DNA of 58,329 nt from an uncultured Bdellovibrionales bacterium (GTDB lineage: Bacteria > Bdellovibrionota_C > UBA2361 > OMII01), in the NCBI GenBank assembly GCA_964654585.1, contig CAZZJR010000004.1, forward strand, positions 13,157 to 71,485, read 5' to 3'. The notes below the pieces were generated by a model that was given only the letters and a program-made list of their open reading frames with translations, searched no databases and had not been told where the DNA came from. Positions 2,703 to 43,417 of the stretch are shown here, piece after piece. The translations under genes and the position numbers were made by a program. Within the stretch, counting starts at the first letter, position 1, and every line of letters begins with the position of its first letter.

Positions 2703-3434
2703 ATGTTCCCTTTTTCAACCACCCTTCGCGGAAGCTGTGCACGCAAACTCATCGCGCTTTCTCTATCGCTTGTCGCTCTCTCTGCTGTCGGCTGTAAGGC
2801 CGGTCCTGCCCCAGATGCGGGCTTCATTCAGAATCCGGAAGTTTTGCGCCAAGACGACAAGCTCCCATTCGACGCAGTTTGGTTCAAGGAGGGGGTAGAC
2901 TTCTCAAAATTTCAGACGGTCTACATCGCTCCGGTTGACACAACGCACCTGCTCAATCTCGATTGGTGGGATAAGGCGAATATCGCTCCCGGCGACCAGC
3001 AATCCCAGGCCGAGGAGCTAGGAGAGTACTTCCGGAATAAAGTTAAAGGTCAGTTCGCCGACGACGACAAGAATAAGCATACGGTGGTCGATACACCGGG
3101 CGATGACACGCTTATTGTAGAGCTTGCTATCGTGGAGGTCGTGCCTACCAAGGTTTGGCTCAACGCCATCGGCTACATCCTTGCTGGACAGCTCGATAAC
3201 GGCTTAACCGCATTCGAGGGCCGTTTCCGTGACGGCAAAACCAAAGAGGTCATCGCAGAGTTCAAGGACCGTGAGTACGGTCAAATCGATATCGTTAGCC
3301 TAGCGGACTTTCAGTGGAACAGGCACTCGCGCCACACCGTAGAAGTGTGGGGAGATCAGCTTGAAGAGGTTGTTTATGTTCAGCCAGGCGCGGCGATCTC
3401 TAGCATGTCATCTGTTACCCTGCGGCCCTGGTAA
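2703..3434 (+). CDS. DUF3313-family lipoprotein
   Basis: RBS GGAGG; lipobox-like AVGC; DUF3313-like motifs (GVDFSKFQTVYIAPV, LIVELAIVEV, EGRFRDGKTKEVIAEFKD). Confidence 0.7.
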   Translation: MFPFSTTLRGSCARKLIALSLSLVALSAVGCKAGPAPDAGFIQNPEVLRQDDKLPFDAVWFKEGVDFSKFQTVYIAPVDTTHLLNLDWWDKANIAPGDQQSQAEELGEYFRNKVKGQFADDDKNKHTVVDTPGDDTLIVELAIVEVVPTKVWLNAIGYILAGQLDNGLTAFEGRFRDGKTKEVIAEFKDREYGQIDIVSLADFQWNRHSRHTVEVWGDQLEEVVYVQPGAAISSMSSVTLRPW

Positions 3435-3486: not shown

Positions 3487-4065
3487 ATGGACAGCTCTTT
3501 TTTCGGGGCACTTGTAGCCCTGCTGCTCTTTAGCCAATTCGTCAAGTTCGCGACGGTCCTTTCTGTGTTTCGCTACGGGGCAGGGCTGGTCGGTTTTGAG
3601 CTTGGGGTGGTGACGCTTGTCGCTGCGCTTGGGCTCGCTTTTGCGACGCTCCCGAAAGAAGTCAGGGAGTCTGGTGCCGCGGTTGCGATCGTGTCGGGTG
3701 CCCCGGCGGATACTGTGGCGTTGCGCACCTCGCTTGTGCCGACGATGGCAGCGAGCCTCGACCCGCAGATTGTGAAGGGGCTTTACGGAGCAGATACTTC
3801 TCTCACGCCAGAGTCGCTCAAGAGCGATCTGGGCCGCTTGCTGCCTGCATACACCCTCTCGCAGCTTAAGTCGGCGCTCGTCCTCGGCGTCATGCTGCTT
3901 ATTCCGTTTGTTCTCCTGGACCTCGTTGTTGTGCATGTGCTCTCGCTGCTCGGTATTCAGCAGATCGGAGCGCAGGTTGTCTCGCTGCCTCTCAAGCTCC
4001 TCCTGTTCCTCGCTATCGATGGTTGGGGGCTGCTGGGTGCCAAGCTTCTCGCTGGAGGTGCTTAG
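3487..4065 (+). CDS. sctR: Divergent T3SS export-gate protein SctR/FliP family, 192 aa
   Basis: FliP/YscR signatures FVKFATVLSVFR and LIPFVLLDLVV...VSLPLKLLLFLAIDGWGLL. Confidence 0.88.
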   Translation: MDSSFFGALVALLLFSQFVKFATVLSVFRYGAGLVGFELGVVTLVAALGLAFATLPKEVRESGAAVAIVSGAPADTVALRTSLVPTMAASLDPQIVKGLYGADTSLTPESLKSDLGRLLPAYTLSQLKSALVLGVMLLIPFVLLDLVVVHVLSLLGIQQIGAQVVSLPLKLLLFLAIDGWGLLGAKLLAGGA

Positions 4066-4307
4066 TGCATCAAGAGATTTCGAGTCTCTGGCAGCAGGGC
4101 ACCAAGGTGCTGGTCGTGGTGCTAGTGCCGACGCTTCTTATTCCTGCAGTTGGCCTTCTGTCAGGGTTGCTCCAGGGTATGATGGGAGTGCGTGAAGATG
4201 GCCTCCAGTATGCGCTGCGCGCGCTTGCGCTGGCTGGGGTGGTCCTCGTTTTTGGGGCATCTTTCGCGAGTGCGTTTGCCGAGCTGATGCAGATGGCGCT
4301 GAGGTAG
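4065..4307 (+). CDS. sctS: Divergent T3SS export-gate protein SctS/FliQ family, 80 aa
   Basis: GTG overlaps the sctR TAG; two TM helices; GLLSGLLQ...REDGLQYALRALAL aligns with the GLLxxLxQ...QEQTLxFxxKLL pattern; size and position fit. Confidence 0.78.
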   Translation: MHQEISSLWQQGTKVLVVVLVPTLLIPAVGLLSGLLQGMMGVREDGLQYALRALALAGVVLVFGASFASAFAELMQMALR

Positions 4308-4308
4308 G

Positions 4309-4857
4309 ATGCTTGCCGCGCTCCTTCCCGTCTTCGGACCCGTTCTCCTGATGAGCATCGCTCTCAGCCTTTCGTTCGTGGTGGCTGGCTCGCCGCAGTC
4401 AGCGTTCTCTGGCGCGTTTGCCATCATGCTCCCGGCCGTCGCAGCCGCAGCTTCCCTGAGCATGCTCTACCGATGGTGCTTTCCTAATGCGGACACCCGA
4501 CCGGCTGGGCTGGCGGCCGCGCTGGTTACGCTCCTCATGCTCTTCTCGTCTAGGGATTACCTGTCGCTCTTTTCGTCTTCGGCTTGGCTGGGAGCTGATT
4601 CGGCTAATCTGCTGATTGCAGCGCGCGAGCTTGCGCTTGTGTGGGGGCTTTCCTTAATTTCGGTGATGGCTGTCGTGTTGGTGTTAGAGCTGCCCCTGCG
4701 CTTCATCTTTGCGGGCTGGAGTGGGCCCGGTCAGGAATCGACCCTGCGCAGCGCCCGGTGTGTGGCTTCATGCGCAATAGTAGGCGCCGCCTGGGTCCTG
4801 CTCGAGGAGAGCGCTGTGGAGAGGCTGTTGCACCTTAAGCAGCTCCTGGTGCGGTAG
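4309..4857 (+). CDS. sctT: Polytopic membrane protein, probable shortened SctT/FliR, 182 aa
   Basis: Very hydrophobic and coupled between sctS and sctU; sequence similarity by eye is weak, so the call is mainly syntenic. Confidence 0.55.
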   Translation: MLAALLPVFGPVLLMSIALSLSFVVAGSPQSAFSGAFAIMLPAVAAAASLSMLYRWCFPNADTRPAGLAAALVTLLMLFSSRDYLSLFSSSAWLGADSANLLIAARELALVWGLSLISVMAVVLVLELPLRFIFAGWSGPGQESTLRSARCVASCAIVGAAWVLLEESAVERLLHLKQLLVR

Positions 4858-4860
4858 GGT

Positions 4861-5442
4861 ATGGCTGAGAGCGCATTCGCCGGAAAAGAGGAGCTGCAGG
4901 AGCTTAAGGCAAGAGGGGTAGTATTTAGCTCGCCGCTAGCTACTCGGTCCGTCGTCCTGGCAGCGCTGCTTGGCTCAAGTGTAGCCGGTTGGGAATGGGT
5001 TACATCGGCGCCAGCGCCGGAGACGCTGCCGGCGATGATTGAACTGGCGCGAAGAGTAGGGCTCGCGGCAGTCGTGCTGTGCGCAGTTACCGTTGCGGCA
5101 ACGCTTGTCGTTACTTTGGCCTTCAACGGCTTCACGCTATCCGCAGGTTTTCTCTCACTCAAGATTCGCCCCGTGCGGCGAGAGAGCGTGTGTATAACCC
5201 TGGCGAGTGGGGTGCTTGGCGCCTCGGTGGGCTCTTTGCTCGCCTACGCATTCGCGGGCGAGCTGTTCCTGTTGCTCAGGACCACTGACGCAGCTTCTCT
5301 GGGAGCTAGCCTTGGCCGGCTGGCCTTGAGGCTTGCCAAAGTAGTTGCCCTTGGAGCGGTTGGGGTGGCGGTGATAGTGACACCGGTCACCAGGGCGCGT
5401 TTTCTCTGGCTTCACCGGTCCCGGAAGGGTGTGCGCGAGTAG
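4861..5442 (+). CDS. sctU: SctU/FlhB-like protein, transmembrane domain only, 193 aa
   Basis: N-terminus KEELQELKARGVVFSSPLAT resembles FlhB/YscU KxxxAReeGqvaxSxel; four hydrophobic segments; ends at the post-TM4 helix (TRARFLWLHRSRKGVRE); no NPTH domain; tandem TAGTAG stop. Confidence 0.68.
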   Translation: MAESAFAGKEELQELKARGVVFSSPLATRSVVLAALLGSSVAGWEWVTSAPAPETLPAMIELARRVGLAAVVLCAVTVAATLVVTLAFNGFTLSAGFLSLKIRPVRRESVCITLASGVLGASVGSLLAYAFAGELFLLLRTTDAASLGASLGRLALRLAKVVALGAVGVAVIVTPVTRARFLWLHRSRKGVRE

Positions 5443-5542: not shown

Positions 5543-5791
5543 ATGTCCACAACCATCGGGAGTCCCCCGGATCCATTTTCCCTGTCGCCTCTGCTCTCGC
5601 TCCTGCCATCGTGCGGCTCGGTTTCGCGCCTCGAAGGGATGGTATCTTCTCTCTTTGCCCGTCAAGAGAAGGTGCTGCAGCTCCGCGAGCAGGGCGGTAG
5701 TAAGGAGATTGAGCGTCGTCTTGCCTGTGAGGAGGCGATGCTGCGGCAAGTTCTCGATTGGCTCTCGGCCAAGAGCGGAGGGGGTGAGTAA
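5543..5791 (+). CDS. Small hypothetical protein, 82 aa
   Basis: ATG at 5543; stop overlaps the next start (TAATG); helical C-terminal half. Confidence 0.6.
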   Translation: MSTTIGSPPDPFSLSPLLSLLPSCGSVSRLEGMVSSLFARQEKVLQLREQGGSKEIERRLACEEAMLRQVLDWLSAKSGGGE

Positions 5792-6225
5792 TGGACCTTC
5801 CTTCGCGCAAGCCAACGGATCTCCCGCGGCGTAGTTACTCAAGAGAAGAAGTAGTCGATTTGTACGAGCTTGGAAAACTGTGGCTCGAGACCGGCCAACA
5901 CAAGCGTGCCGAAGACATTATGTCTGGCCTTAACGAGGTTGCGCCGGATTTTGCTCCAGCCTGGCTCGGGACCGCCTTTCTGCGTGGAACACAGCTCGAC
6001 TACGAGGGAGTGGTCGCCGCGGCCACGTCAGCCCTGCGCCTTGAGCCCGACTGCGTTGAGGCGATGCTTTTTGTGGTTATCTCCGCTCTCGCTCTCAAAG
6101 ACTCGAGTATGGCCGGCACCTACCTTGGTGAAGTCGGTGACCGGATCGAGCAGGGGCAGGTCTCTAATCCGAACGTAACCCGGCTGTACAAGATGCAGCT
6201 CGCCCGTTACCAAAACCGTGAGTAG
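5791..6225 (+). CDS. TPR protein, SycD/LcrH (class II T3SS chaperone)-like, 144 aa
   Basis: TPR pattern (LYELGKLWLETGQHKRAEDIM, APDFAPAWLG, ALRLEPDCVEA); size and context match class II chaperones. Confidence 0.72.
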   Translation: MDLPSRKPTDLPRRSYSREEVVDLYELGKLWLETGQHKRAEDIMSGLNEVAPDFAPAWLGTAFLRGTQLDYEGVVAAATSALRLEPDCVEAMLFVVISALALKDSSMAGTYLGEVGDRIEQGQVSNPNVTRLYKMQLARYQNRE

Positions 6226-6626: not shown

Positions 6627-7226
6627 ATGAAACGTGTATTGGGCCTTATTTTCTCGTGCGCTTTTATTCTCGCCGTTCCGGCAAGCGCTGAGGATATCCA
6701 CGAGGTATTCAAAAAAGTTGAGGAGTACGCTCAACAAAAAAACTTCCCTAAGGCAATGGAGGAGCTGCAGTGGGCGCAGAAGGAGCTCGAGAAGATGCAC
6801 CAACAGCGGCTCGCTGAGCTGCTTCCAGGCAGCATCGATGGCTTCACTGGGGAGGAGCCGCAGTTTCAGTCAGCGATGGGCTTCTCGAGCATCGAGCGTC
6901 AGTACGTGAAAGGCGACGACAGCATTCGCCTCAGCATTGCGGGTGCTGCGGGAGCAGACGGCATGGGCGGGCTCGCTGGCCTCGCAAAGATGGGGATGAT
7001 GATGGGCGGCACTCAGCCGGGCAAAGAGCAGTTCCGGATCGATGGCCGCACCGCGACACTCGATACCTCCGGAGGATCGCCAGAGCTAACGGTGTTGCTT
7101 GAGAGCGGAGGAATTCTTCAGCTACAGGCAAACGGCGAGTCGATTAATGCGGCTTCGCTCAAGAAGTTTGCCCAGGCGATTAAGCTTGGGGATCTGGATT
7201 CGTACCTTAAGGGCGGCAAGAGCTAA
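6627..7226 (+). CDS. Exported hypothetical protein, 199 aa
   Basis: RBS GGAGGA; Sec signal peptide ending in ASA; strong codon bias; Gly/Met-rich internal segment. Confidence 0.8.
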   Translation: MKRVLGLIFSCAFILAVPASAEDIHEVFKKVEEYAQQKNFPKAMEELQWAQKELEKMHQQRLAELLPGSIDGFTGEEPQFQSAMGFSSIERQYVKGDDSIRLSIAGAAGADGMGGLAGLAKMGMMMGGTQPGKEQFRIDGRTATLDTSGGSPELTVLLESGGILQLQANGESINAASLKKFAQAIKLGDLDSYLKGGKS

Positions 7227-9621: not shown

Positions 9622-9963
9622 CTACTTCTTTTTCGGGGGCTCTGCTGACTCAATGAGGGAGGCGTCGATGACCATCTTAACCGCCTGCTCTACGATGGCG
9701 CGCTGGTTCTTTGGAATAACTCCCTGGGCGGCGAGCTTCTCAGCCTCCTCCGAGACGAGGCTCATCAGCTTGTCTCGCTGTTCGAGAGTGATGGACCCAA
9801 GCGCGCCAGCTCCTCCTACCCGTGAAACGCCGGACACGCCTTTGACAGACGTCGCACCTTTGACCTTCTCAACTTCGGATACTGACTCAGTGCCTTTGAC
9901 GCCCTTGGTCGACCCGGAGGAGCCGACTGCACCAACTTTCTTGTCGTCTTTATTTTTGCCCAT
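9622..9963 (-). CDS. Small protein with low-complexity N-terminus; FlgM-like anti-sigma candidate, 113 aa
   Basis: Immediately downstream of the FliA-like sigma gene on the same strand; G/V/K/S-rich N-half and helical C-half. The CDS is well supported; the function is inferred. Confidence 0.6.
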   Translation of the reverse strand: MGKNKDDKKVGAVGSSGSTKGVKGTESVSEVEKVKGATSVKGVSGVSRVGGAGALGSITLEQRDKLMSLVSEEAEKLAAQGVIPKNQRAIVEQAVKMVIDASLIESAEPPKKK

Positions 9964-9991: not shown

Positions 9992-10783
9992 TTATCCTGA
10001 TGCTTTCCGCAACGCGTCGGTGAATGGCCCCTTCGAGCCATCTCCCTTGAGCTTCGCCATGAGGGGCCTGAGACCAGGCCGGATCTTCGGCGTGGGCGCG
10101 GCTTTCCCCTGCGCCATGCTCTTCTGCAGGTACGCAATCAGAACTTTGTGCTCTCGCATCACGTTAAGTCCATCTGTCTCCCACTCGGTGGCGACGGTGC
10201 GCAGTGAGAGACCATCCCAGTACACCTTGTAGAGGAGCCACTGGTGCACCGGCTCAAGAGCCGCCATGACCCCCACCATGCGCCGGTAATCGATTAGGTC
10301 ATCGGGCAGCGGATCGCTCGAGACAGCTTGCCGAGTGGCAACGATGCTGGCTCCAACGAGGAGTTCCCTGACCGCTGCTCTCATGTCTGCGTCTTCGTTT
10401 CCAGAAGACTCTGAAACAGGCAGGCGCCCGTCGCGCATTTCCGGGAAGACTCCGTACAACTCTGCTGAGATCTCTCGTGCCTTAGCCTCTACCGCGGTTT
10501 TGCTCGCTGTGTTGCGGGTCCAGCCCTTAGATTTTCTGGCGGCATCCGTCGATGCCTCGTGAATTCGCTTGCGCGCGTACCCCTTAAATGGAATTCCGCG
10601 GGTAGGGTCGAAGCGGCGCGAACAGAAGATCAGCGCTTCCATCGCGGCGCCATCGAGACCATCCAGTCGCCAATCTAGACTCCATGCTCGCGCCACGCTG
10701 CGGGCGATACTTTCGGCCCAACCGTGGTGCTCTACGACCAGGTTGTTAGCTTCTTCTTCTGTTAGGGTTTTTCTCTCGGCCAC
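9992..10783 (-). CDS. Sigma-70 family RNA polymerase sigma factor, FliA/WhiG-like, 263 aa
   Basis: Region 2 (LVVEHHGWAESIA...RRFDPTRGIPFKGYARKRIHEASTDAARK) and a region-4-like segment (LEPVHQWLLYKVYWDGLSLRTVA). Confidence 0.8.
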   Translation of the reverse strand: MAERKTLTEEEANNLVVEHHGWAESIARSVARAWSLDWRLDGLDGAAMEALIFCSRRFDPTRGIPFKGYARKRIHEASTDAARKSKGWTRNTASKTAVEAKAREISAELYGVFPEMRDGRLPVSESSGNEDADMRAAVRELLVGASIVATRQAVSSDPLPDDLIDYRRMVGVMAALEPVHQWLLYKVYWDGLSLRTVATEWETDGLNVMREHKVLIAYLQKSMAQGKAAPTPKIRPGLRPLMAKLKGDGSKGPFTDALRKASG

Positions 10784-10887: not shown

Positions 10888-11058
10888 GTTGCCAGCAGTC
10901 ACTTACACCCAGGATAGCCCAGAAGCTAGCAGTTCCAAATACTTAACTTTTTCAGAAGCAGTTTTAGCACGGGGATGGATAAGGGGGAGAACGCCGTAGG
11001 AAAGCTAAAAACGCGGCGGAAAGGTTTTGTTTCTACTCAGAAAAACGAGGGCAGCACA

Positions 11059-11940
11059 ATGGGAGTGGCTTCAGTCAGAGAGATTTCGAAGAGAGAGAAG
11101 GCTCGCGCACGTGGTGGTGCTAAGGCAGCTACGCGTTCGTCGAAAGCAAAGCTGCGACTGGTAAAGCCGACGCTGAAGGGTGACGGGTCGCCAACACCGC
11201 TTCAGCAAGAGGCGCTCATCCTGAAATATCGGCTCAAGGCACGCAAACTCGGCCGCAGCATCCTGCGCCGCTGGCACGCCCGCATGGACCTCGACGAGGT
11301 AGACAGCCTAGTCGATCTCTCCCTGTGTGAAGCTGTAAAGCGCTTCAACCCGTCAAAGGGTGCAAGCTTTATGACCTTCCTGTTTTACCACCTAAAAGGC
11401 AACCTCGTTCGTTCGGTCGCCGCGGCGGCCGCTTCGGCATCTCTCCCGTCAAGCCTGCTCGCTGAGGGCGAGGGCACTCCACTCAGTGGAGACCTGATGG
11501 GCGAGCTGAGCCTGCGGGGCCTAAACTCGGCGGAGATCGCCGAGGCAATTTCAAGTCAGGACGCTCCGCAGCCAGATGAGGCGCTGTGGAAGAAGCAGCT
11601 TCACGGCCAGAGCTCACTGGCTTGCGAGAAGCTCGACGCCCTTGAGCAGGAGATCATAAAGCGCATCTTCATCCAGGAGCAGCAGATCATGGATATCGCA
11701 GCTTCCCTCGGATACAGCCGCTGCCACATCTCACGTGTCAAGAAGAAGGCTCTAGAGACGCTGTACGACGAGCTGCGTGGCGCGATGAACCAGGATGACC
11801 TTGGCCAGCGCCCGTCGTTCGACGATGATTCCGATGATGAGGTCGAGCAGCGGATCATGAACCGTAAAGCGATCCACCGCCGCCGGCCGCGCTCTCGCGC
11901 ATCGAAGCAGTCACCATTCGTTCCAGCTCGCGCCGCGTAA
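11059..11940 (+). CDS. Sigma-70 family sigma factor, SigB/F-like, 293 aa
   Basis: Region 2 (SLCEAVKRFNPSKGASFMTFLFYHLKG) and region 4 HTH (LEQEIIKRIFIQEQQIMDIAASLGYSRCHISRVKKKAL); basic N- and C-terminal tails. Start could be 10975. Confidence 0.85.
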   Translation: MGVASVREISKREKARARGGAKAATRSSKAKLRLVKPTLKGDGSPTPLQQEALILKYRLKARKLGRSILRRWHARMDLDEVDSLVDLSLCEAVKRFNPSKGASFMTFLFYHLKGNLVRSVAAAAASASLPSSLLAEGEGTPLSGDLMGELSLRGLNSAEIAEAISSQDAPQPDEALWKKQLHGQSSLACEKLDALEQEIIKRIFIQEQQIMDIAASLGYSRCHISRVKKKALETLYDELRGAMNQDDLGQRPSFDDDSDDEVEQRIMNRKAIHRRRPRSRASKQSPFVPARAA

Positions 11941-15500: not shown

Positions 15501-17921
15501 ATGTGTCAGGCCCTGTGCAGAGCCGCCCAGCGGGTGCGGCAGACGCTTCTGGTCAGCGCAGCAGCTTTTGCGTGCGGCGTTGACTGGTCCGAGTCTGCAG
15601 CGCAAGAGCTGCGGGTGGTGCCTGGCGAGTACATTGTGACGCTGCCTGCGCGTGCGTCAGGCAAGAGCGTTACAGCTGCCGCTTCGAGCCCAAACTTTTC
15701 ATCCTCGATGGTTGGTGTTGCTGACGTGCTGAACGGCGAGGCCCTAGTCGTGCGGGCTCCCGGTAACGGCGTGATGCGCGCGGCGACAGCTGCTGCAGAT
15801 GGCTCTGTGCCGTACCGAGCCGAGCACGACCTCTGTAAGGCGATCCTTGCCGAGGGGCGAGCCGAGAGCTGCTCCCCCAACTTTGTTGTCCGGGCCCTGG
15901 CTGTTCCCAACGACCCCCAGCTGTCGCAACTGTGGGGTCTGAGCGAAGCGAGCGGAATCAATGCGCCGCGGGCTTGGGACCTCTTCACCGGGTCAAGCTC
16001 GATCGTTGTGGCGGTGATCGACACAGGGATAGACTACAATCACCCGGACCTGGCCGCGAACATGTGGAGAAATCCGGGAGAGATCGCGAGCAACGGGGTT
16101 GACGACGATGGTAACGGATACGTCGACGACCTGTACGGAATTAATGCTCGAACTGGCGCGGCACAGCCTGGAAATCCGCTGGATGACCACTACCACGGGA
16201 CACACGTAGCAGGAACCATCGGCGCTGTGGGCAACAATGGAATAGGCGTCGTGGGGGTCAATCAGCGCGTGAAGATGATGGCGCTCAAGTTCCTCTCGTC
16301 AACTGGCAGCGGCAGCCTATCTGACGCGATCCGGGCGATCGACTACGCTACCATGATGAAGAACGACTACGGGGTGAACGTCCGGGTTTCGAACAATTCG
16401 TGGGGCGGCGGAGGTTACTCGGCCGCATTGGAGAATGCTATCAAACGCGCCCGAAATGCGGGGATCATCTTCGTGGCGGCGGCTGGAAACTCCAGTGTAG
16501 ACACTGACTCAGAACCGAGCTACCCATCAGGATACGATGTGGACAATGTCGTGTCGGTCGCCGCTATCGACAGCTCGCACAACCTTGCGACCTTTTCCAA
16601 TTACGGCGCCACGACGGTTGATATCGCCGCGCCGGGAGTCGATATTCGCAGCACCATGCCGACTTCGCAGTACGGCAAGTTATCGGGTACGTCGATGGCA
16701 ACGCCGCACGTAGCCGGAGCGCTCGCGCTCTTGCTGGGTCGGGAGCCAGGGCTTAGCTACCTCGAGGCTGTAGACCGGTTGTACCTCTCTGGGGTGACCA
16801 GGGCATCCCTGGTCGACATACCCACCGGGGTGTCTCTTGTGCGAACTCAACGAACTCTAAACGTCGCACGGATGCTCTACAACGAAACAGCGCCCCTGCC
16901 GTCCCTGCCCCCGAACCAGGTTCCGTGCGGGTACAGCTTCCAGTCGGCTAACCTGCTTGCGGGCGGCGAAGTGGACACGGCAGCCGATGAGGCCCCGATC
17001 GTCAACCAGACTGATGAAGGGAGCTTCTACCAAATTGACCTGCCGTTCTCCTTCCAGTTCTTCCGGGAGAGCGTCAACAGAATCTGGCTCTCGCCCAACG
17101 GGATCGTCTACACCAAGTCGCCGCTGGGGCTTGATTACGTTGTGAGCGCTAAGGCGCCGAAAAACTCTATCGCGGCGCTGCACACTGACCTCATTCCCCG
17201 AGCGGCGGATCAGGGCGTCAGGGTAGCTGTCTCGGATAACAAGGTAACGGTGATGTGGAGGTCCGAACACTACGGACTCCCGGGTCAGGGGGTCATCACT
17301 GTTCGTTTGACGATACGCGCAGATGGTACCTATTCATCGTCCGCGCACTTCGGTTCGGATGGGCTCAATTACGCTCTCAAGAATCAGGTTCTCGGTAATC
17401 CATTCGAATCGACCCCGACCGACGGCCGCGCGCTGGTCGGAGTGACCGGGGCACTCTCAACGTTCTTCTCGGTTCTTGACCTGGCTGCCACCCAGACCGC
17501 CCTGACTTCATCCTCAAGCGAGGCACTGGCTTTGGGGGCGGGGATGACCACGAGCTGTGCGGTCGCGCCACCGCCCCAGGATGGAGACTCAGAGCCCGTA
17601 ATCACAGGGGTGGTCATCAGCCAAACCGGTGCCGGCCGTTTAAGTGTGCCGGCACAGGTGGCTCTCTACGGGTCGGGGTCGGGTAGTGTCCCGGTGACGT
17701 TCAGGGTTAACTCCCGCACCTGCCGAAGTACGGTGCCGTTCAACCTAAGCGATGGCACTGCACGGGTTAGGTTACGGGTTCCGGCAGGCGTACGGGGGTT
17801 GACCGCGTCCGCCTCGAGTGCGAGCGATTCAATTCGTTTCCGTTGGTCGGCAGGAGCGGGGGCAGGTGCGAGCGACTCAACTCGCTGCGCCAGGCTCCTG
17901 AGGAGTGTTACCCCCTTCTAA
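15501..17921 (+). CDS. Secreted S8 (subtilisin-like) serine protease with C-terminal beta-rich domains, 806 aa
   Basis: Catalytic triad motifs VAVIDTGID, HYHGTHVAGTI, SGTSMATPHVAG; oxyanion AAAGN; prodomain VPGEYIV. Confidence 0.93.
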   Translation: MCQALCRAAQRVRQTLLVSAAAFACGVDWSESAAQELRVVPGEYIVTLPARASGKSVTAAASSPNFSSSMVGVADVLNGEALVVRAPGNGVMRAATAAADGSVPYRAEHDLCKAILAEGRAESCSPNFVVRALAVPNDPQLSQLWGLSEASGINAPRAWDLFTGSSSIVVAVIDTGIDYNHPDLAANMWRNPGEIASNGVDDDGNGYVDDLYGINARTGAAQPGNPLDDHYHGTHVAGTIGAVGNNGIGVVGVNQRVKMMALKFLSSTGSGSLSDAIRAIDYATMMKNDYGVNVRVSNNSWGGGGYSAALENAIKRARNAGIIFVAAAGNSSVDTDSEPSYPSGYDVDNVVSVAAIDSSHNLATFSNYGATTVDIAAPGVDIRSTMPTSQYGKLSGTSMATPHVAGALALLLGREPGLSYLEAVDRLYLSGVTRASLVDIPTGVSLVRTQRTLNVARMLYNETAPLPSLPPNQVPCGYSFQSANLLAGGEVDTAADEAPIVNQTDEGSFYQIDLPFSFQFFRESVNRIWLSPNGIVYTKSPLGLDYVVSAKAPKNSIAALHTDLIPRAADQGVRVAVSDNKVTVMWRSEHYGLPGQGVITVRLTIRADGTYSSSAHFGSDGLNYALKNQVLGNPFESTPTDGRALVGVTGALSTFFSVLDLAATQTALTSSSSEALALGAGMTTSCAVAPPPQDGDSEPVITGVVISQTGAGRLSVPAQVALYGSGSGSVPVTFRVNSRTCRSTVPFNLSDGTARVRLRVPAGVRGLTASASSASDSIRFRWSAGAGAGASDSTRCARLLRSVTPF

Positions 17922-20138: not shown

Positions 20139-21629
20139 TTAGTTACCAAGGGCGCTGCGCAGAAGAAGCATCCACTGGCGCTCGTCCGCTGGGGTGGCCG
20201 AAGACGCGCCGTTGTCGGAAGCTCCGACCTGCAGAACCGTACTCGGACTGACGTAGGTGCGGGATCGGCACCAGGTCCGTGAGAAGAGGGCTATGTTTGC
20301 CGGGTCAGTTGGGCCCGGGGGCATAGGCGCCGAGAAAGTAACCGTATTAGGGTTCTGCTCTGGCGTTAGAGTTACCTGGCGTGAAGCGACACGGTACGTG
20401 GGCCCGAACCCCCTGCCGTTTCGCAGGGCCTGTGCCATCAAACCAACCGTACACGGCTCCGCCCGTAGGCTGGTCGACCGAATCACCGCAAAAAAGGTCT
20501 GAGCAGTGGTGCCCTCGAGCGAAATGCTCAGATCGTGGTCGGGCAACCGGGCGATACAGCGCATGCGGGAGCTGATCGCCGACTTCATAGCGGCAAGAGA
20601 GAGCTGTGAGAAGCCGTTGTTGTTCGCCGAAAGAACCGGATTCATCACCGAGTTTGGAACCGAATCGTGGTAGCTCCCCAAGTTGTGCGCGATTTCGTGG
20701 GCAAACAGCAAGGGCTGAAGCGGCGGCGAAATGGCGCGGGAAAGCCCGATGTTAAACCTCGCTCGACCTGAGCAGGCAGTGCCCACGTAGGCGATTCCGA
20801 TGGTGCGGCTGACTAGGGCGCGCCCGGTGAAGAGGTGCAGCACGTCGTAGTTTTCCGTCTCCGCCATGGACTGTTGCTGGAACTGGGTAAGAAGCGAACT
20901 CGCTTCGATCGGCGAAGGCTGTGCTGCGCCGCTTGTTTGGACTTTTTGGCTCACCAGGCGTAACCGTAATCCCAGAGGGGCCGCATACAGCACCTCGGCG
21001 GCGTGCACAGTGGCAGCGATGTAGTCATTCGTGTTGGCACCGTAGAGCGTGTAGAACTCATAGTCGGCGCGCGTTGCTACCTCTAGGACCCTCTGCGGGT
21101 TAAAGGGAACGCTGCCCTGTCCAGCCGCGGAGACCCCTCCGCTGCCTTTTTCGTGCGAGGCAACGCGCCCGACTCGGTGTGCATGCCGACTACCGCACGG
21201 TAGGGACCGTTGCGGATTTCGGCTCACACGCACGCGAGCCGGCAGAAGGCCATCCGCTGAGGCGACCAGGGAGAACGAGACACTGGAGGGAACACCCCAG
21301 CGAGAAGAGGTAAAGAACACGATGTAGCTGTCACCGATGCGACTGGCAGCGACAGCATTGGGATTCCGCCTACCTCCCCGTGGACGACTCTCTCCTCGCA
21401 GGTGAAGAAGGGATGCGCTGAGCTGTTGCTGGGAATCGACCTTAAGCTCAAAGCGCTCAATGCCTTCTTTGGTGGCCACTGAAAGAAAGAGGCGCTCTGT
21501 AACCCCTGGGTTCGCTAACGCCTGGAACGTCCCCAGGATCTTTGGCTCGGCGACGGCGCTATTCGAGCAGCAGGTCGCGAGGAGCATGTAAGAGAGCGTG
21601 ACAAATAGCGATGAAGAACTGCGCCGCAT
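20139..21629 (-). CDS. Secreted M12B/reprolysin-like (metzincin) zinc metalloprotease
   Basis: Signal peptide; HLFTG...TIGIAYVGTAC; FAHEIAHNLGSYHD (HExxHxxGxxHD); Met-turn SVMNP. ATG at 21629 preferred. Confidence 0.85.
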   Translation of the reverse strand: MRRSSSSLFVTLSYMLLATCCSNSAVAEPKILGTFQALANPGVTERLFLSVATKEGIERFELKVDSQQQLSASLLHLRGESRPRGGRRNPNAVAASRIGDSYIVFFTSSRWGVPSSVSFSLVASADGLLPARVRVSRNPQRSLPCGSRHAHRVGRVASHEKGSGGVSAAGQGSVPFNPQRVLEVATRADYEFYTLYGANTNDYIAATVHAAEVLYAAPLGLRLRLVSQKVQTSGAAQPSPIEASSLLTQFQQQSMAETENYDVLHLFTGRALVSRTIGIAYVGTACSGRARFNIGLSRAISPPLQPLLFAHEIAHNLGSYHDSVPNSVMNPVLSANNNGFSQLSLAAMKSAISSRMRCIARLPDHDLSISLEGTTAQTFFAVIRSTSLRAEPCTVGLMAQALRNGRGFGPTYRVASRQVTLTPEQNPNTVTFSAPMPPGPTDPANIALFSRTWCRSRTYVSPSTVLQVGASDNGASSATPADERQWMLLLRSALGN

Positions 21630-21763
21630 TGTTGATCCATGGGATACGAGCCGCACAAGCGGCTGGAGGGGATGTATCAAAGTGCTGCTGCCTAAGATAC
21701 CCGCTTCCAGTGGGGAAATGGGACTGGTCGGGACGGATTCGAACAGGACCAGACAGGAGGAGA

Positions 21764-28199: not shown

Positions 28200-29414
28200 C
28201 TACGCTCGGATCAGGCTCGGATCCTTGGCAATTTTTGCAGCCTCGGCTTCGTCTTCCTCGTGAGCGAGGAATGGGTTTCTGGCGCGGCGACGGAGGAGTG
28301 CGAAGGTGTCGTGGTATCCGACTTCTATCAGCGAGTTGAGGTACTCTGGGTCGAGGGCGACGTACGACATCACCTCGTAGGCGGCCTCCTCTCCTAGCTT
28401 CGCCTTGACCAGCGTAAAGAGGGGCCACAGGGCGCCGCATGCATCCATAAAACGCTTGCGGGAGCTACCGACAGCCTGCTTAAGGTAAACCCCAAGGCTG
28501 CCTGGGTTGCGAATCGTAAGAGTTTCTGGCGGACGGAGACAGAAGGTGTCGTCACCAGCGGGAACCTCCCAGCTTGGGCGCTTGTCGTGAGCCTCGCCGT
28601 ATCTGTCGAGCCACCACGAGCGACCGGAGATATCGATAACGACGATGCGGTGGGCACCGAGTCGAACGGCCGGGTCTACCGGTATGTTCTGTGAGATTCC
28701 GCCGTCTACGAGCCGGACACGACCGCGGTCGGTATCCAGCTCAACCGGGGGAAGTATCGAGGGGAGAGCCGCTGATGCGAAGCCATGACGCGCGCTCAGT
28801 TCGTCGACGTAACACACCTCAAAGGTTGCTCCCGATAGCTCTTCTGGGGTCAGATGGTGGTGGCTGCTCAGAAAGAGCAGCGGCTTCCGTTGGGCACCGT
28901 CCATGGTAGTCATAACCCCAATGGCACGCAGCGACGGAGCTCGTCGTGATGGATTCAGCCCGCCTTGGCTCTGAATGACAGCATTGAGTCGCTCCTCAAG
29001 TGGCGAGGGATCGAGCACAGAGGTCTTAGAGGTAGTTGGGCCGGGGGCTAGGTACTGAGCGGTCGCTATTCTGATAGCGCGCAGGAAGGCACGTGTGCGA
29101 GAGCCGGCGAAGGTGTTTGAGAAGGTTCTCTCGCGCCACAGGTCTTCGAGCACTTCGATGCTCGAACCTATCCCGTTGCGGATGCAGGCTGACAGCACGA
29201 GTCCATTCACTGCACCTATGCTGCTACCGAGCACTATCGAGGTATTGTCTAGGTCTTTTCCGAGAACCTGGGCGAGCGCTTTGAGTGCCCCAGCTTGATA
29301 CGCGGCACGGACTCCCCCTCCAGACAAGACGATTCCGAGGTCACTGCTGTTCGGCTCTAGCGACTTCCGAAATTTAACCGCTTTTTGGTCCTCAGACTGT
29401 GGCCGTCTCCTCAT
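28200..29414 (-). CDS. Patatin-like phospholipase
   Basis: Gly-rich LSGGGVRA, nucleophile GSSIG, ASAALP and catalytic DGG. ATG at 29414 (AAGG RBS) or GTG at 29432. Confidence 0.9.
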   Translation of the reverse strand: MRRRPQSEDQKAVKFRKSLEPNSSDLGIVLSGGGVRAAYQAGALKALAQVLGKDLDNTSIVLGSSIGAVNGLVLSACIRNGIGSSIEVLEDLWRERTFSNTFAGSRTRAFLRAIRIATAQYLAPGPTTSKTSVLDPSPLEERLNAVIQSQGGLNPSRRAPSLRAIGVMTTMDGAQRKPLLFLSSHHHLTPEELSGATFEVCYVDELSARHGFASAALPSILPPVELDTDRGRVRLVDGGISQNIPVDPAVRLGAHRIVVIDISGRSWWLDRYGEAHDKRPSWEVPAGDDTFCLRPPETLTIRNPGSLGVYLKQAVGSSRKRFMDACGALWPLFTLVKAKLGEEAAYEVMSYVALDPEYLNSLIEVGYHDTFALLRRRARNPFLAHEEDEAEAAKIAKDPSLIRA

Positions 29415-29447
29415 AAAAACCTTGAGGTCCACTCGCCCCTAACGGGA

Positions 29448-41271: not shown

Positions 41272-41508
41272 ATGGCCAAGGCCGCAAAAGAGACATTCTA
41301 CCTCGTTTCCTCCGAAGGGACTGGATTCTTCTACATAAATCGCAAGAACAAGAAGAAGGGCAAGGGGGAGAACAAGCTCAAGGTTCGCAAGTACGATCCG
41401 ATCGCTCGTAAGCACGTGCTATTCGAAGACAAGAAGCTCTCTAAGCTCAAGAAGAAGTACGTTGCCGGAGGAGCCACCGAGAGCAATTCGGGTAAGCAGT
41501 CTGAGTAG
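41272..41508 (+). CDS. rpmG: 50S ribosomal protein L33 (Cys-free form) with C-terminal extension
   Basis: LVSSEGTGFFY...KLKVRKYDPIARKHVLFED. Confidence 0.92.
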   Translation: MAKAAKETFYLVSSEGTGFFYINRKNKKKGKGENKLKVRKYDPIARKHVLFEDKKLSKLKKKYVAGGATESNSGKQSE

Positions 41509-41524
41509 CAGCTCAGGTGCTCCG

Positions 41525-43417
41525 GTGGTAGCTATTACACAGAGCGAGGAGCCGTCTCAGCAATCCGAAGATTCCACGGTCAGCGAAGCCTCGACTGAAA
41601 CAGGCGTCGCCCCACCCCGTCAAAGCGCCGGTCGAACCCTTATCAGTCGGCAGCCGGAGCGCAGTATCCCATCGTCGACAGTACGCACACTCCTGGGGCT
41701 TTCATTGCTCGCCCTCGCGGTCGTCGCCTACACACTAACGGAGAGCGGTCTAGAGCCGGAGCGACAGCAGATGTTATCGCTGTCCCTGTCCGGTGTCGCG
41801 CTTGTGGTTGCTCTCTTTGAAGCTACCTCTATTCTCTCGACGAGGGACAGGCTGGAGAGCCCGCTGGAACTTTTCGCGCCGGCTGGAGTGTTTCTGCTAG
41901 CGCTTGGGGGTTTGGGAGATGGTTATGTTCCCTCTTTTAGCTCATCGATTTTGATCTCCACTGGGCCCGTACTTGCGGCCGGGGTTCTGTTGCTTGCTCG
42001 CGCTGCGGTTCCGAGTGCGGTTCTCACGGCAAGCACTGATCATCTCTTACTTCCACCGGGCGTAGAGGTCGGAGAGGCCGCCAAGGGGGAGGCGCTCTCG
42101 CTTTCCAGTGGTGTGATCGTAGCGGCTGATTCTCGGATAGAGCGAGGTTGCTGCAGTGTTCTTGAGCGACAGCTCTCTCCGGAGACACGTTTTCGCATCA
42201 AGGAGGAGGGCGATGTCCTCTTCGCAGGCTCCGAGGTAATCGGTGGGTCTGCCGAGGCAGTGGCGCTTTCAAGCTCGGAGAATTCGTGCTTGCGGAGCCT
42301 TGAGAAGCTTGTGTTCTCAAATGTCGAAAAAGCGGGCGCATCGCTCCATCAGGAGGACCTACGTTCTCGCAAAGCGACCGCGTACGTCTTGGTGTTCGTA
42401 TCTGTGGCCTGCGCAATCCTGTGGGATGAGCGAGTAGGTCGCCCATGGGATACGCTGGCAGCGTCAGGACTGGTGCTATTTGCGGGGATTGTCTGCCAGC
42501 TTGCAGATATTTTGTACTCGCGCCAGCGCTCTATGGTTCGGCGCTGGGCTAGGCAGGGATTCATTGCTGCCTCTGAGAGCGCTGTTCGGGAGTTGGCATC
42601 TGCGACAAAAGCCCTGTTTGACCCCAGCCGAGTTGACCTCGGCTCCTTAGTTCGGGTTCGAGAGCTGGAGATCCTCGACGATCGAGTCGGAAGGCAGGAA
42701 TTGACAGCTTGCCTCGCGACTCTCTTGGGACGGGCAGAGGAAGTTGCGTTGGTTGCGGCCGGTGATTTCTGCCAGAAAGAGTGCTCAACCGTGGTGCCTG
42801 AGCGGGTCCTCGAACTCCACGAGATCGCCGGCATGGGAATTAGTGGAAGAGTTAAGGGCGTATCAGTTCTAATAGGAACCGAGGAGCTGCTGCTCGATAG
42901 GGGAGTGCTCATTCATCCATCTGAAAGCAACGTCGAGAGCGCTGACAACGAGCGTCCGCTGCTAGTGGCGGTTGGTGGAGAGCTTGTCGCCCGGTTCTGG
43001 GTAGTGTTTGGACAGCGGGCGCTGGTCGAGGAGGGGGCTGACCACGCGGTGTGGCACGGCTTGGTTTCTGCGGGGATCTCGGTTGGTGTTCCGGGGGAGA
43101 TTAGTCCGACGACGATCCTCGTTCGGGGTCAGGAATCAGATGTGCTGGGCCGTTCTGCAGAGATACAGGTGTCGCATTTTGCAGGGGAGCGGTTCGAACT
43201 CCCGCGCTCGACAGTTATCGCGTTGACACGCAACCTGAGCGACCTTCCGTCGCTCATTGCCGAATCCCACCGGTACCTGCGGCTAGTGGAAAGGGCTCGG
43301 ATACTGGTAGCGTTCGGAGCCTTCCTGTCGGTCGCGACAGTCTTTTTCGGCTTCTTCTCCCCGCTTGTGGCGAGTGTCTCTCTTGGGCTCGTGGCTGCTG
43401 TCTTCGCCCTTCTGTAG
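41525..43417 (+). CDS. Degenerate P1B-type (heavy-metal) ATPase-like membrane protein
   Basis: Colinear P1B scaffold (VAADSRIERG..V.E, GDVLFAGS, GFIAASESAVRELA, EIAGMGISG.V.G..VLIG) with catalytic motifs altered. Start uncertain (41462-41525). Confidence 0.7.
   Translation: MVAITQSEEPSQQSEDSTVSEASTETGVAPPRQSAGRTLISRQPERSIPSSTVRTLLGLSLLALAVVAYTLTESGLEPERQQMLSLSLSGVALVVALFEATSILSTRDRLESPLELFAPAGVFLLALGGLGDGYVPSFSSSILISTGPVLAAGVLLLARAAVPSAVLTASTDHLLLPPGVEVGEAAKGEALSLSSGVIVAADSRIERGCCSVLERQLSPETRFRIKEEGDVLFAGSEVIGGSAEAVALSSSENSCLRSLEKLVFSNVEKAGASLHQEDLRSRKATAYVLVFVSVACAILWDERVGRPWDTLAASGLVLFAGIVCQLADILYSRQRSMVRRWARQGFIAASESAVRELASATKALFDPSRVDLGSLVRVRELEILDDRVGRQELTACLATLLGRAEEVALVAAGDFCQKECSTVVPERVLELHEIAGMGISGRVKGVSVLIGTEELLLDRGVLIHPSESNVESADNERPLLVAVGGELVARFWVVFGQRALVEEGADHAVWHGLVSAGISVGVPGEISPTTILVRGQESDVLGRSAEIQVSHFAGERFELPRSTVIALTRNLSDLPSLIAESHRYLRLVERARILVAFGAFLSVATVFFGFFSPLVASVSLGLVAAVFALL

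Follow-up and report, generated by a model that had tools for sequence, protein, structure and literature searches.

Loss of the methionine gasket and a rewritten SctS hairpin tip in the export gate of a reduced type III secretion-like locus from an uncultured Bdellovibrionales bacterium

Two adjacent genes in a 58,329-nucleotide stretch of DNA from an uncultured Bdellovibrionales bacterium (GenBank assembly GCA_964654585.1, contig CAZZJR010000004.1, positions 13,157 to 71,485; this whole stretch is called the window below) encode homologues of SctR and SctS, the pore subunits of the export gate of type III secretion systems (T3SSs). In these proteins every one of the residue sets lining the canonical translocation path is replaced. 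All three constrictions (Q1-belt, M-gate and Q2-belt) are rewritten and kept under purifying selection, with a ratio of nonsynonymous to synonymous substitution rates (dN/dS) of about 0.1, so that the original prediction of an altered gate chemistry holds. The loss of the Met gasket is family-wide and preceded the change in SctS. We read the locus as encoding a working, remodelled core channel (SctR5–SctS4 and partners) in a reduced, needle-less, injectisome-derived T3SS-like machine, and we give this reading, its sealing inferences included, a probability of about 0.6.

The Met gasket is seen as the key device that keeps type III pores from leaking while thousands of residues per second pass through. 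Here it has been replaced naturally throughout a large, selectively maintained clade, and one subclade has also rewritten the loop of the neighbouring subunit. Such co-adapted sequence sets are ready for testing what sealing and substrate grip need. The clade also points to a large set of minimal T3SS-like cassettes within a predatory phylum; in the literature searched we found no description of a polar-gasket T3SS family or of this Bdellovibrionota cassette, neither of its composition nor of its function.

The gate genes and the replaced sites are as follows.

3487–4065, + strand: SctR/FliP-family pore subunit, 192 amino acids (Pfam FliP PF00813, 4e-22)
3583–3603, + strand: SctR hairpin-1 loop GLVGFEL at the Q2-belt position (alignment)
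3955–3963, + strand: SctR I157-Q158-Q159 at the position of the Met-Met-Met gasket, or M-gate (gap-free HMMER alignment)
4065–4307, + strand: SctS/FliQ-family hairpin subunit, 80 amino acids (Pfam Bac_export_3 PF01313, 24.0 bits against a cut-off of 25)
4173–4220, + strand: SctS hairpin tip Q37-GMMGVREDGLQYAL-R52 (alignment to SpaQ/FliQ)

Replacement of the gasket and the hairpin-1 loop in SctR

SctR matches the Pfam profile PF00813 with 79.5 bits (cut-off 26.9), its residues 11–186 covering profile positions 11–190 of 191. Against the NCBIfam equivalog TIGR01102 it reaches 70.6 bits, with a cut-off of 208.6, and matches well in the C-terminal 74 residues only. A phmmer search of the C-terminal half against all PDB chains gave a gap-free, high-posterior alignment to SpaP and FliP (E = 2e-17), in which SctR LLGIQQIGAQVVSLPLKLLLFLAIDGW lies over SpaP ALGMMMMSPVTISTPIKLVLFVALDGW. 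In the HMMER alignment I157-Q158-Q159 fall without gaps on Met185–187 of SpaP and Met209–211 of FliP. The codons are ATT CAG CAG, and relatives vary the first position as ATT, GTG or ATG. The surrounding core is invariant with respect to canonical FliP/SctR (P140, D145, P168-L-K170, F174 and G179-W180 in the MAFFT/HMMER alignment), and the core motif PF..DL..SLPLKLLLF..DGW is retained. An alignment artefact was considered and rejected: there are no gaps, the flanks are invariant, and HMMER and MAFFT give the same register with single sequences and with profiles.

The second site in SctR is the hairpin-1 loop. In SpaP the M-gate consists of M185–187 together with F212 of SpaR, and the Q2-belt consists of Q44/Q45 (PMC7943601). 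The segment G33-L-V-G-F-E-L is aligned on the SpaP loop G-L-Q-Q-I-P-S, for which the canonical form is G-L/I-Q-Q-I/T-P-P/S. Thus, Q44/Q45 are replaced by V35/G36, and a clade-specific Glu38 is added. Every one of the 12 genomes has GL[V/I]G[F/V]E[F/L]G at this loop, and the wider family reads GLxGxGFG. The original prediction had placed LGIQQ at the gasket and GLVGFEL, from position 3583, in place of the Gln loop; its coordinates for both are exact, and the Pfam and PDB alignments put the residues on the gasket and belt positions, not outside them. Its reference motif GxQQxPP, taken as near-invariant, was too strong, since the hairpin-1 loop of Escherichia coli K-12 FliP reads GTPSAPP.

Replacement of the Gln belt in SctS

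The GTG start of sctS overlaps the TAG stop of sctR, and the gene call is the same in locus L001. A profile of 12 SctS orthologues matches FliQ structures at E values of 5e-6 and 2e-4 in the same register, and the orthologues in loci L017, L019 and L020 carry PF01313. In the alignment the numbering of SctS coincides with that of SpaQ, so the tips can be read residue by residue.

SctS of the window, positions 37–47 and 52: Q G M M G V R E D G L, R
SpaQ, positions 37–47 and 52: Q T V T Q L Q E Q T L, K

The Q1-belt is made of Q41/Q43/Q45 of SpaQ and Q208 of SpaR (PMC7943601), and Q37 is counted as part of the belt in work on enteropathogenic E. coli (EPEC; PMC8726614). In the window Q41/Q43/Q45 are replaced by G41/R43/D45, and a hydrophobic pair, M39/M40, is present. 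The loss of Gln and the gain of two Met residues in QGMMGVREDGL, from position 4173, had therefore been read correctly, with exact coordinates and a register now fixed against SpaQ. The salt-bridge pair E44...R52 and P22 are retained in register; they correspond to P23/K54 of EscS and E46/K54 of FliQ, which are essential for assembly (PMC8726614, PMC8239009). Together with the retained SctR core, these residues argue for continued formation of an R5S4-type helical assembly.

The survey of the tip covered 38 clusters, with one fragmentary sequence and one distant L017-type protein besides the full-length ones of the window clade. All full-length window-clade clusters (37/37) read G/S/A-ΦΦ-G/A-[V/I/L/M]-R-[E/D]-[E/D/G]-[G/S/C], where Φ is a hydrophobic residue, followed by a conserved Tyr and a conserved Arg. 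The ΦΦ pair is MM in 15 clusters, FF in 11 and LI in 8, with single occurrences of LM, LL, LV and FL. The helix-1 Pro and the two salt-bridge sites are occupied by Pro, Asp/Glu and Arg throughout the clade, about half of which uses Asp at the acidic site. In FliP the M-loop co-varies with the FliQ salt-bridge residue, E versus D (PMC8239009).

Distribution of the altered gate and order of the changes

A scan of one genome per GTDB species for relatives of the locus found 11 further loci, all in metagenome-assembled genomes labelled Bdellovibrionota, Bdellovibrionales or 'delta/proteobacterium', which with the window gives 12 species-level genomes. Their open reading frame (ORF) maps match in order and size, with family names taken from the Pfam annotation of the window, L001, L004, L017 and L019: FHA-SctD, zinc-ribbon/FHA, SctJ, a 74-residue protein, a coiled-coil protein of ~115 residues, SctQ-like, (DUF3313), SctR, SctS, T-like, U-like, an 82-residue protein and a TPR protein. 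The gasket triplet in the 12 genomes is IQQ (three), VQQ, MQQ, ISH, AVS, VSN (two), TQN or VQH (two). An exhaustive HMMER search of 1.84 billion representatives with the family profile gave 2922 matches. Among the best 150 of these (50%-identity representatives, E ≤ 2e-25) MMM does not occur once, and the triplet has the consensus [V/I]-T-Q, with VTQ (30) and ITQ (22) as the commonest forms. The residues at each site in the best 150 are distributed as follows.

Gasket position 1: V 66, I 51, M 11, A 10, L 8
Gasket position 2: T 74, Q 21
Gasket position 3: Q 90, N 15, S 14

In the maximum-likelihood tree these SctR sequences form one clade on a long stem, with a Shimodaira–Hasegawa-like approximate likelihood ratio test (SH-aLRT) support of 99. 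The sister is a small Myxococcota-like clade with LQM, LQS or LQA at the gasket, and both clades are nested with injectisome-type SctR, not with flagellar FliP. Within the first clade the window group has support of its own as a subclade (97) and is distinguished by the hairpin-1 Glu. In the sister clade, one member of which is labelled Kofleriaceae (Myxococcota), isolated FliO-FliP-FliQ-short FliR cassettes were observed (L022, 1461–3099; L023, 5082–7249). Their gaskets read LQM and LQS, and the FliQ loop GAFTQIQDP keeps TQIQD, which makes them a second lineage lacking the Met gasket, in non-flagellated bacteria.

The distant members of the MMM-less clade keep the core cassette R-S-T-U-~80 aa-TPR, beside RNase G/response-regulator genes in L017 and L019 and beside two-component and FliG_C genes in L020. 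In L017, L020 and L021 SctR carries V/I-T-Q, yet the SctS loops are canonical-like (QSATSIQDR, QAATGINDI and QSATGVKEQ). The order of the changes is therefore clear from the sequence comparison: the Met gasket was lost first, across the family, and the ΦΦ pair and the Arg-acidic-acidic tip of SctS arose later, in the window clade only. This bears on the apparent M/Q swap between SctR and SctS that had been proposed from the window alone. The gasket Met and the SctS Gln residues are indeed lost and MM is gained, but neither MM nor QQ is conserved and the two changes are separated in time, so that the swap amounts to chance spelling within a single subclade. Similarly, the exact letters of IQQ and GMMG vary among the orthologues, whereas the character of the sites is conserved across the 12 genomes and 37 SctS clusters. 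As judged from these alignments, that character is a hydrophobic-polar-polar gasket, to which the window clade adds a G-ΦΦ-G pair and an R-acidic-acidic SctS tip.

One alternative is that the gate works as in a normal T3SS and that the loop changes are near-neutral in a fast-evolving lineage, with nothing relocated. Several findings speak for it. Single and double Q1-belt substitutions in EPEC EscS are harmless, and the belts have been called sequence-flexible seals (PMC8726614); the Q2-belt loop is less conserved in FliP, mutants of Q44/Q45 are mildly affected (PMC7943601), and the QQ pair is absent from E. coli K-12 FliP. In the gasket, single substitutions and some M-polar-polar variants are functional, those with larger polar side chains keeping much activity (about 70% for MYY) (PMC8239009), and the triplet differs within the clade itself (IQQ, VSN, VQH and others). 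In Salmonella position 1, which is not channel-exposed, tolerates only medium-size hydrophobic residues, and positions 2 and 3 are exposed (PMC8239009). However, the FliP Met triplet is conserved at 99, 87 and 99% in about 2500 homologues, and its triple replacement nearly abolishes flagellar export (PMC8239009); the gasket change, with MMM in 0/150 sequences here, thus lies far outside ordinary variation. Variants of this kind are not common in ordinary flagellar or injectisome gates but are the rule in a large uncharacterised family. Moreover, the strong conservation of the new residues, both in the SctS tip (37/37 clusters) and as Gln at gasket position 3 (90/150), points to selection for a new chemistry and not to drift, and the three constrictions have changed together with the loss of the SctU C-domain and of a recognizable SctT. 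We therefore consider tolerated variation unlikely, though it deserves to be kept in view.

Selection on the gate genes

Contigs from three independent sequencing runs carry the identical SctR protein, which rules out an assembly error. The same locus turns up in metagenomes of 2016 to 2025 from freshwater, reservoirs and drinking water. Compared with two relatives (L006/L007; dS about 0.4–0.5) by the Nei–Gojobori method, dN/dS is 0.10 for SctR, 0.10–0.15 for SctS, about 0.2 for the T-like protein and about 0.26 for the U-like protein. The gate codons are unchanged amid synonymous differences between the relatives. These values bear on the idea of a decaying T3SS relic with eroded gate motifs, which could draw on the missing components, on NCBIfam scores far under the equivalog cut-offs and on the unrecognizable T-like protein. 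A relic is excluded by the low dN/dS of all four gate genes (0.1–0.26) and the unchanged gate codons; in addition, the frames are intact and translationally coupled, the same gene order is shared by at least 12 species-level genomes and by distant relatives, and identical proteins were recovered from independent freshwater metagenomes. We regard decay as highly improbable.

Operon layout and partner proteins

The first 6.2 kb of the window form one co-oriented, mostly translationally coupled operon. With the genes upstream of the window its order is SctD-D-J-x-x-Q-lipoprotein-R-S-"T"-U(N-domain only)-x-TPR, which comprises two SctD genes besides SctJ, SctQ, R, S and U(N). The same contig from another run reaches 6.5 kb further upstream, where it carries two FHA/YscD-type (SctD-like) genes together with a response regulator, RNase G and MreB. 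The window genes were compared with Pfam and NCBIfam profiles. Besides sctR and sctS they are as follows.

4–867, + strand: SctJ-like inner-membrane ring lipoprotein, 287 amino acids (Pfam YscJ_FliF, 1e-14)
864–1088, + strand: conserved protein of 74 amino acids (no family match; same place in all orthologous loci)
1093–1449, + strand: conserved coiled-coil protein of ~118 amino acids in the SctO/SctL position (weak coiled-coil-type matches; syntenic in all loci)
1450–2487, + strand: SctQ-like cytoplasmic-ring protein, 345 amino acids (Pfam FliMN_C, 1.4e-15, in two stretches; NCBIfam SctQ, 9e-9)
2703–3434, + strand: DUF3313 lipoprotein between sctQ and sctR (Pfam DUF3313, 6e-15)
4309–4857, + strand: 'T-like' polytopic membrane protein, 182 amino acids, in the sctT slot (gene position)
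4861–5442, + strand: SctU/FlhB N-terminal transmembrane domain only, 193 amino acids (hhalign via the L017 orthologue)
5543–5791, + strand: conserved protein of 82 amino acids with a PDPFSLSPLLSLLP motif (no family match; syntenic in all loci including distant L017 and L020)
5791–6225, + strand: TPR protein of 144 amino acids, like a class II T3SS chaperone (TPR_19, 3e-4; weak SctY and LcrH/SycD NCBIfam matches)

The SctJ-like protein also matches NCBIfam SctJ TIGR02544 at 3.4e-25, under the equivalog cut-off, and the SctQ-like protein has two FliN-type domains at its C-terminal end. The DUF3313 gene lies between sctQ and sctR in the window subclade and L019 only, and is absent there in L004/L014 and L017. 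The TPR gene closes the R-S-T-U cassette in all loci.

The U-like protein of the window has no direct Pfam match. By transitive profile comparison through the L017 orthologue it is assigned to the N-terminal four-helix membrane domain of SctU/FlhB: hhalign aligns its profile with that orthologue over the full length (93%, E = 3e-7), and the orthologue matches PF01312 at 4e-21 at profile positions 2–218 of 335 only. Its AlphaFold2 (AF2) model, with a predicted local distance difference test score (pLDDT) of 64 and a predicted template-modelling score of 0.37, is too poor for a structure search. Arg and Lys are abundant in the cytoplasmic loop of the protein in all orthologues. SctU of the Vibrio complex 6s3l is wrapped about the loops of SctS (PMC7943601), and with the basic character of the U-like loop this makes an electrostatic contact between that loop and the acidic SctS tip a plausible further interpretation of the R-E-D motif.

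The T-like gene lies between S and U in all loci, and its product is a candidate SctT by gene position, size and topology alone. A search of its profile against a set of 5.8 billion proteins returned its own family only, without Pfam domains. Comparisons with hhalign against the SctR family, E. coli FliR, a short Myxococcota FliR and a three-sequence FliR alignment were all negative, the probability being below 1% for E. coli FliR and the short Myxococcota FliR. The AF2 model (pLDDT 76) has five to six helices; Foldseek found no FliR/SpaR with it and chance matches resembling G-protein-coupled receptors only, although a monomer model of a subunit of a helical assembly is a weak test.

Proposed mechanism and its weighing

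On this reading the gate was remodelled in two steps. In the first, ancient and family-wide, the two channel-exposed Met residues of the gasket became polar (consensus Φ-T-Q; here I-Q-Q). This exchange would leave at the central constriction a ring of hydrogen-bonding Gln/Thr side chains in place of a greasy, deformable gasket. In the second, confined to the window clade, the Gln-x-Gln-x-Gln belt of the SctS tip gave way to G-ΦΦ-G-x-R-[D/E]-[D/E]-G. Four SctS copies would then contribute eight large hydrophobic residues, which could act as a hydrophobic collar that seals the cytoplasmic portal, and the Arg/acidic triad could form an electrostatic latch, whether from one SctS copy to another, to the Arg/Lys-rich cytoplasmic loop of the truncated SctU, or both. 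Above the collar, the Gln ring would grip the substrate backbone as the Q-belts do. A move of the hydrophobic seal to SctS is possible but unproven, as it is deduced from helical periodicity relative to Q37 and not from a structure. We infer that the gate continues to export polypeptides; protein substrates are suggested by the SctD/J/Q ring genes and by the TPR chaperone-like gene, which is linked to the cassette in every case. Work on Salmonella provides a measure of precedent for function, through the considerable activity left to M-polar-polar variants with larger polar side chains and through the co-variation of M-loop and FliQ salt-bridge residue (PMC8239009).

Several points weigh against this reading. 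First, SctV/FlhA, the T3SS ATPase SctN, the secretin SctC and the needle protein SctF were found neither in the 58-kb window nor in the 6.5 kb upstream (~65 kb), and SctV is required for export in canonical T3SSs. Second, the U-like protein ends at 193 residues, and the C-terminal autocleaving (NPTH) switch domain is missing from the gene. Third, the T-like protein matches nothing in Pfam or NCBIfam, and its profile matches nothing among PDB sequences; with no detectable SctT similarity in the sctT slot, contributions of the R-plug and of the Phe/Gln residues of SctT to the gate appear unsupported. Fourth, the lumen-facing position of M39/M40 and the closure of the pore by Q158/Q159 do not come from a structure of the assembled complex and stay predictions. 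Regarding evolution, the gain of ΦΦ is a single event, and its link to the gasket change is thus statistically untestable. Finally, no substrate is known, the host is uncultured, export is itself deduced from the sequence, and the RNA-run search matched only runs of unknown library type.

The missing components can also be taken to mean that the gate was exapted and no longer transports unfolded proteins, serving instead as a scaffold or sensor that nucleates SctD/J/Q rings, or as a conduit for ions or small molecules. This would fit the lack of SctV, ATPase, secretin and needle genes in about 65 kb, a SctU without the C-domain for substrate docking and switching, constrictions that are polar or charged rather than a hydrophobic gasket, and distant R-S-T-U-x-TPR cassettes that lie beside two-component and FliG_C genes without ring genes. 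However, the TPR chaperone-like gene is always attached and a homologue of the SctQ sorting platform is present, both of which fit protein substrates; the absence of SctV and SctN holds for about 65 kb around the operon and not for the whole genome; and the needle-less T3SS* of Myxococcus still acts in export-dependent prey lysis (PMC12075869). The four components were also not found in the Pfam-annotated ±10 kb flanks of L001, L004, L017, L019 and L020, the flanks of L006–L016 being listed as ORFs without a family scan. On balance exaptation seems improbable, and neither the constitutively open pore nor the scaffold or sensor role raised in the original prediction has gained direct support.

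A bolder reading would make the R-S-T-U(N)-x-TPR cassette a third T3SS-derived lineage beside flagella and injectisomes. Such a lineage would use a polar (Thr/Gln) central constriction independently of SctV, the ATPase and the SctU switch; it would be widespread in uncultured Bdellovibrionota and neighbouring groups, with a hydrophobic/electrostatic portal borne by SctS in the window clade. We think this unlikely; if true, it would imply a different principle of gating and energising and possibly a different class of substrate.

Comparison with known systems

Set against the SctR5–SctS4–SctT1 complex (SpaPQR; PDB 6pep/7agx/7ah9) and FliP5–FliQ4–FliR1 (6f2d), the window proteins are clear SctR and SctS homologues of the same length and hairpin layout. 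They share the SctR core motifs, Pro22 and the E...K/R salt bridge of SctS, and the coupled R-S-T-U gene order. They differ in that MMM is replaced by IQQ, QxQxQ by GxRxD after a hydrophobic pair, and QQ by VG plus a conserved Glu. In the sctT slot stands a protein of 182 residues without detectable similarity, SctU is reduced to its N-domain, and genes for SctV, SctN, SctC and the needle are not nearby.

The closest reduced systems described are the needle-less 'Myxo' non-flagellar T3SS (NF-T3SS) of Myxococcales (Abby & Rocha 2012, PMC3459982) and the T3SS* of M. xanthus (PMC12075869). Those loci hold the full secretion apparatus and the ATPase SctN, lack the secretin, needle and translocon, and are argued to be functional though incomplete (PMC3459982, PMC12075869). 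The window locus resembles them as a reduced, NF-T3SS-type system of a predatory, former deltaproteobacterial lineage that is vertically conserved and has no secretin or needle gene nearby. It differs, as set against published descriptions and not against the Myxococcus proteins, in having no ATPase or SctV in the neighbourhood, a truncated SctU, an unrecognizable SctT and a rewritten gate.

Regarding the gasket, the FliP M-loop variants of Hüsing et al. (2021, PMC8239009) also have a medium-size hydrophobic residue at position 1 and vary at the two exposed positions. Unlike the clade described here, those variants are rare, occur in flagellated bacteria and mostly keep at least one Met, MFM being the commonest. 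Here a whole large clade is without Met at the exposed positions, and the window subclade has a rewritten SctS tip as well. The Gln gate of MacAB–TolC (cited in PMC8239009) is a precedent for gating by a polar ring; its fold and substrate are unrelated, and the likeness is an analogy only.

Genomic surroundings

The remainder of the window carries housekeeping genes and secreted hydrolases. After the TPR gene, in every orthologous locus, stands a protein of ~200 amino acids with a signal peptide (AEDIHEVFKKVEEYAQQKNFPKA...; 6627–7226, + strand) and no family match, which is a candidate substrate or periplasmic component. Just downstream of the cassette are two divergent sigma-70-family genes (Sigma70_r2, 3e-4; Sigma70_r4, 1e-6) and an ORF of 113 residues without a family match (9622–9963, − strand; 9992–10783, − strand; 10975–11940, + strand). 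The distant L017, and L019 too, have a sigma-70-type gene in synteny with the cassette, which suggests a dedicated regulator.

Two distant loci show other arrangements. In L020 (8709–9860) the R-S-T-U-x-TPR cassette adjoins a stand-alone FliG_C protein (147 amino acids) and a response-regulator/HisKA gene, without SctD/J/Q; the core cassette is thus found in no fewer than two genomic settings. In L021 (7364–11918) the sctR, sctS and T-like genes are split by AAA-ATPase_like/PDDEXK_9 and ATPase_2/AAA_16 genes, which look like mobile or defence-type insertions within the cassette. Elsewhere in the window, an ORF of 651 residues (41462–43417) has a weak E1-E2_ATPase match (6e-10) and no match to the hydrolase/HAD domain. 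Lastly, genes for secreted-type hydrolases lie within 25 kb of the cassette, namely a subtilase (S8), a reprolysin-like M12B metalloprotease and a patatin phospholipase (15501–17921, 20139–21680 and 28200–29432); this cluster fits a predatory or lytic lifestyle.

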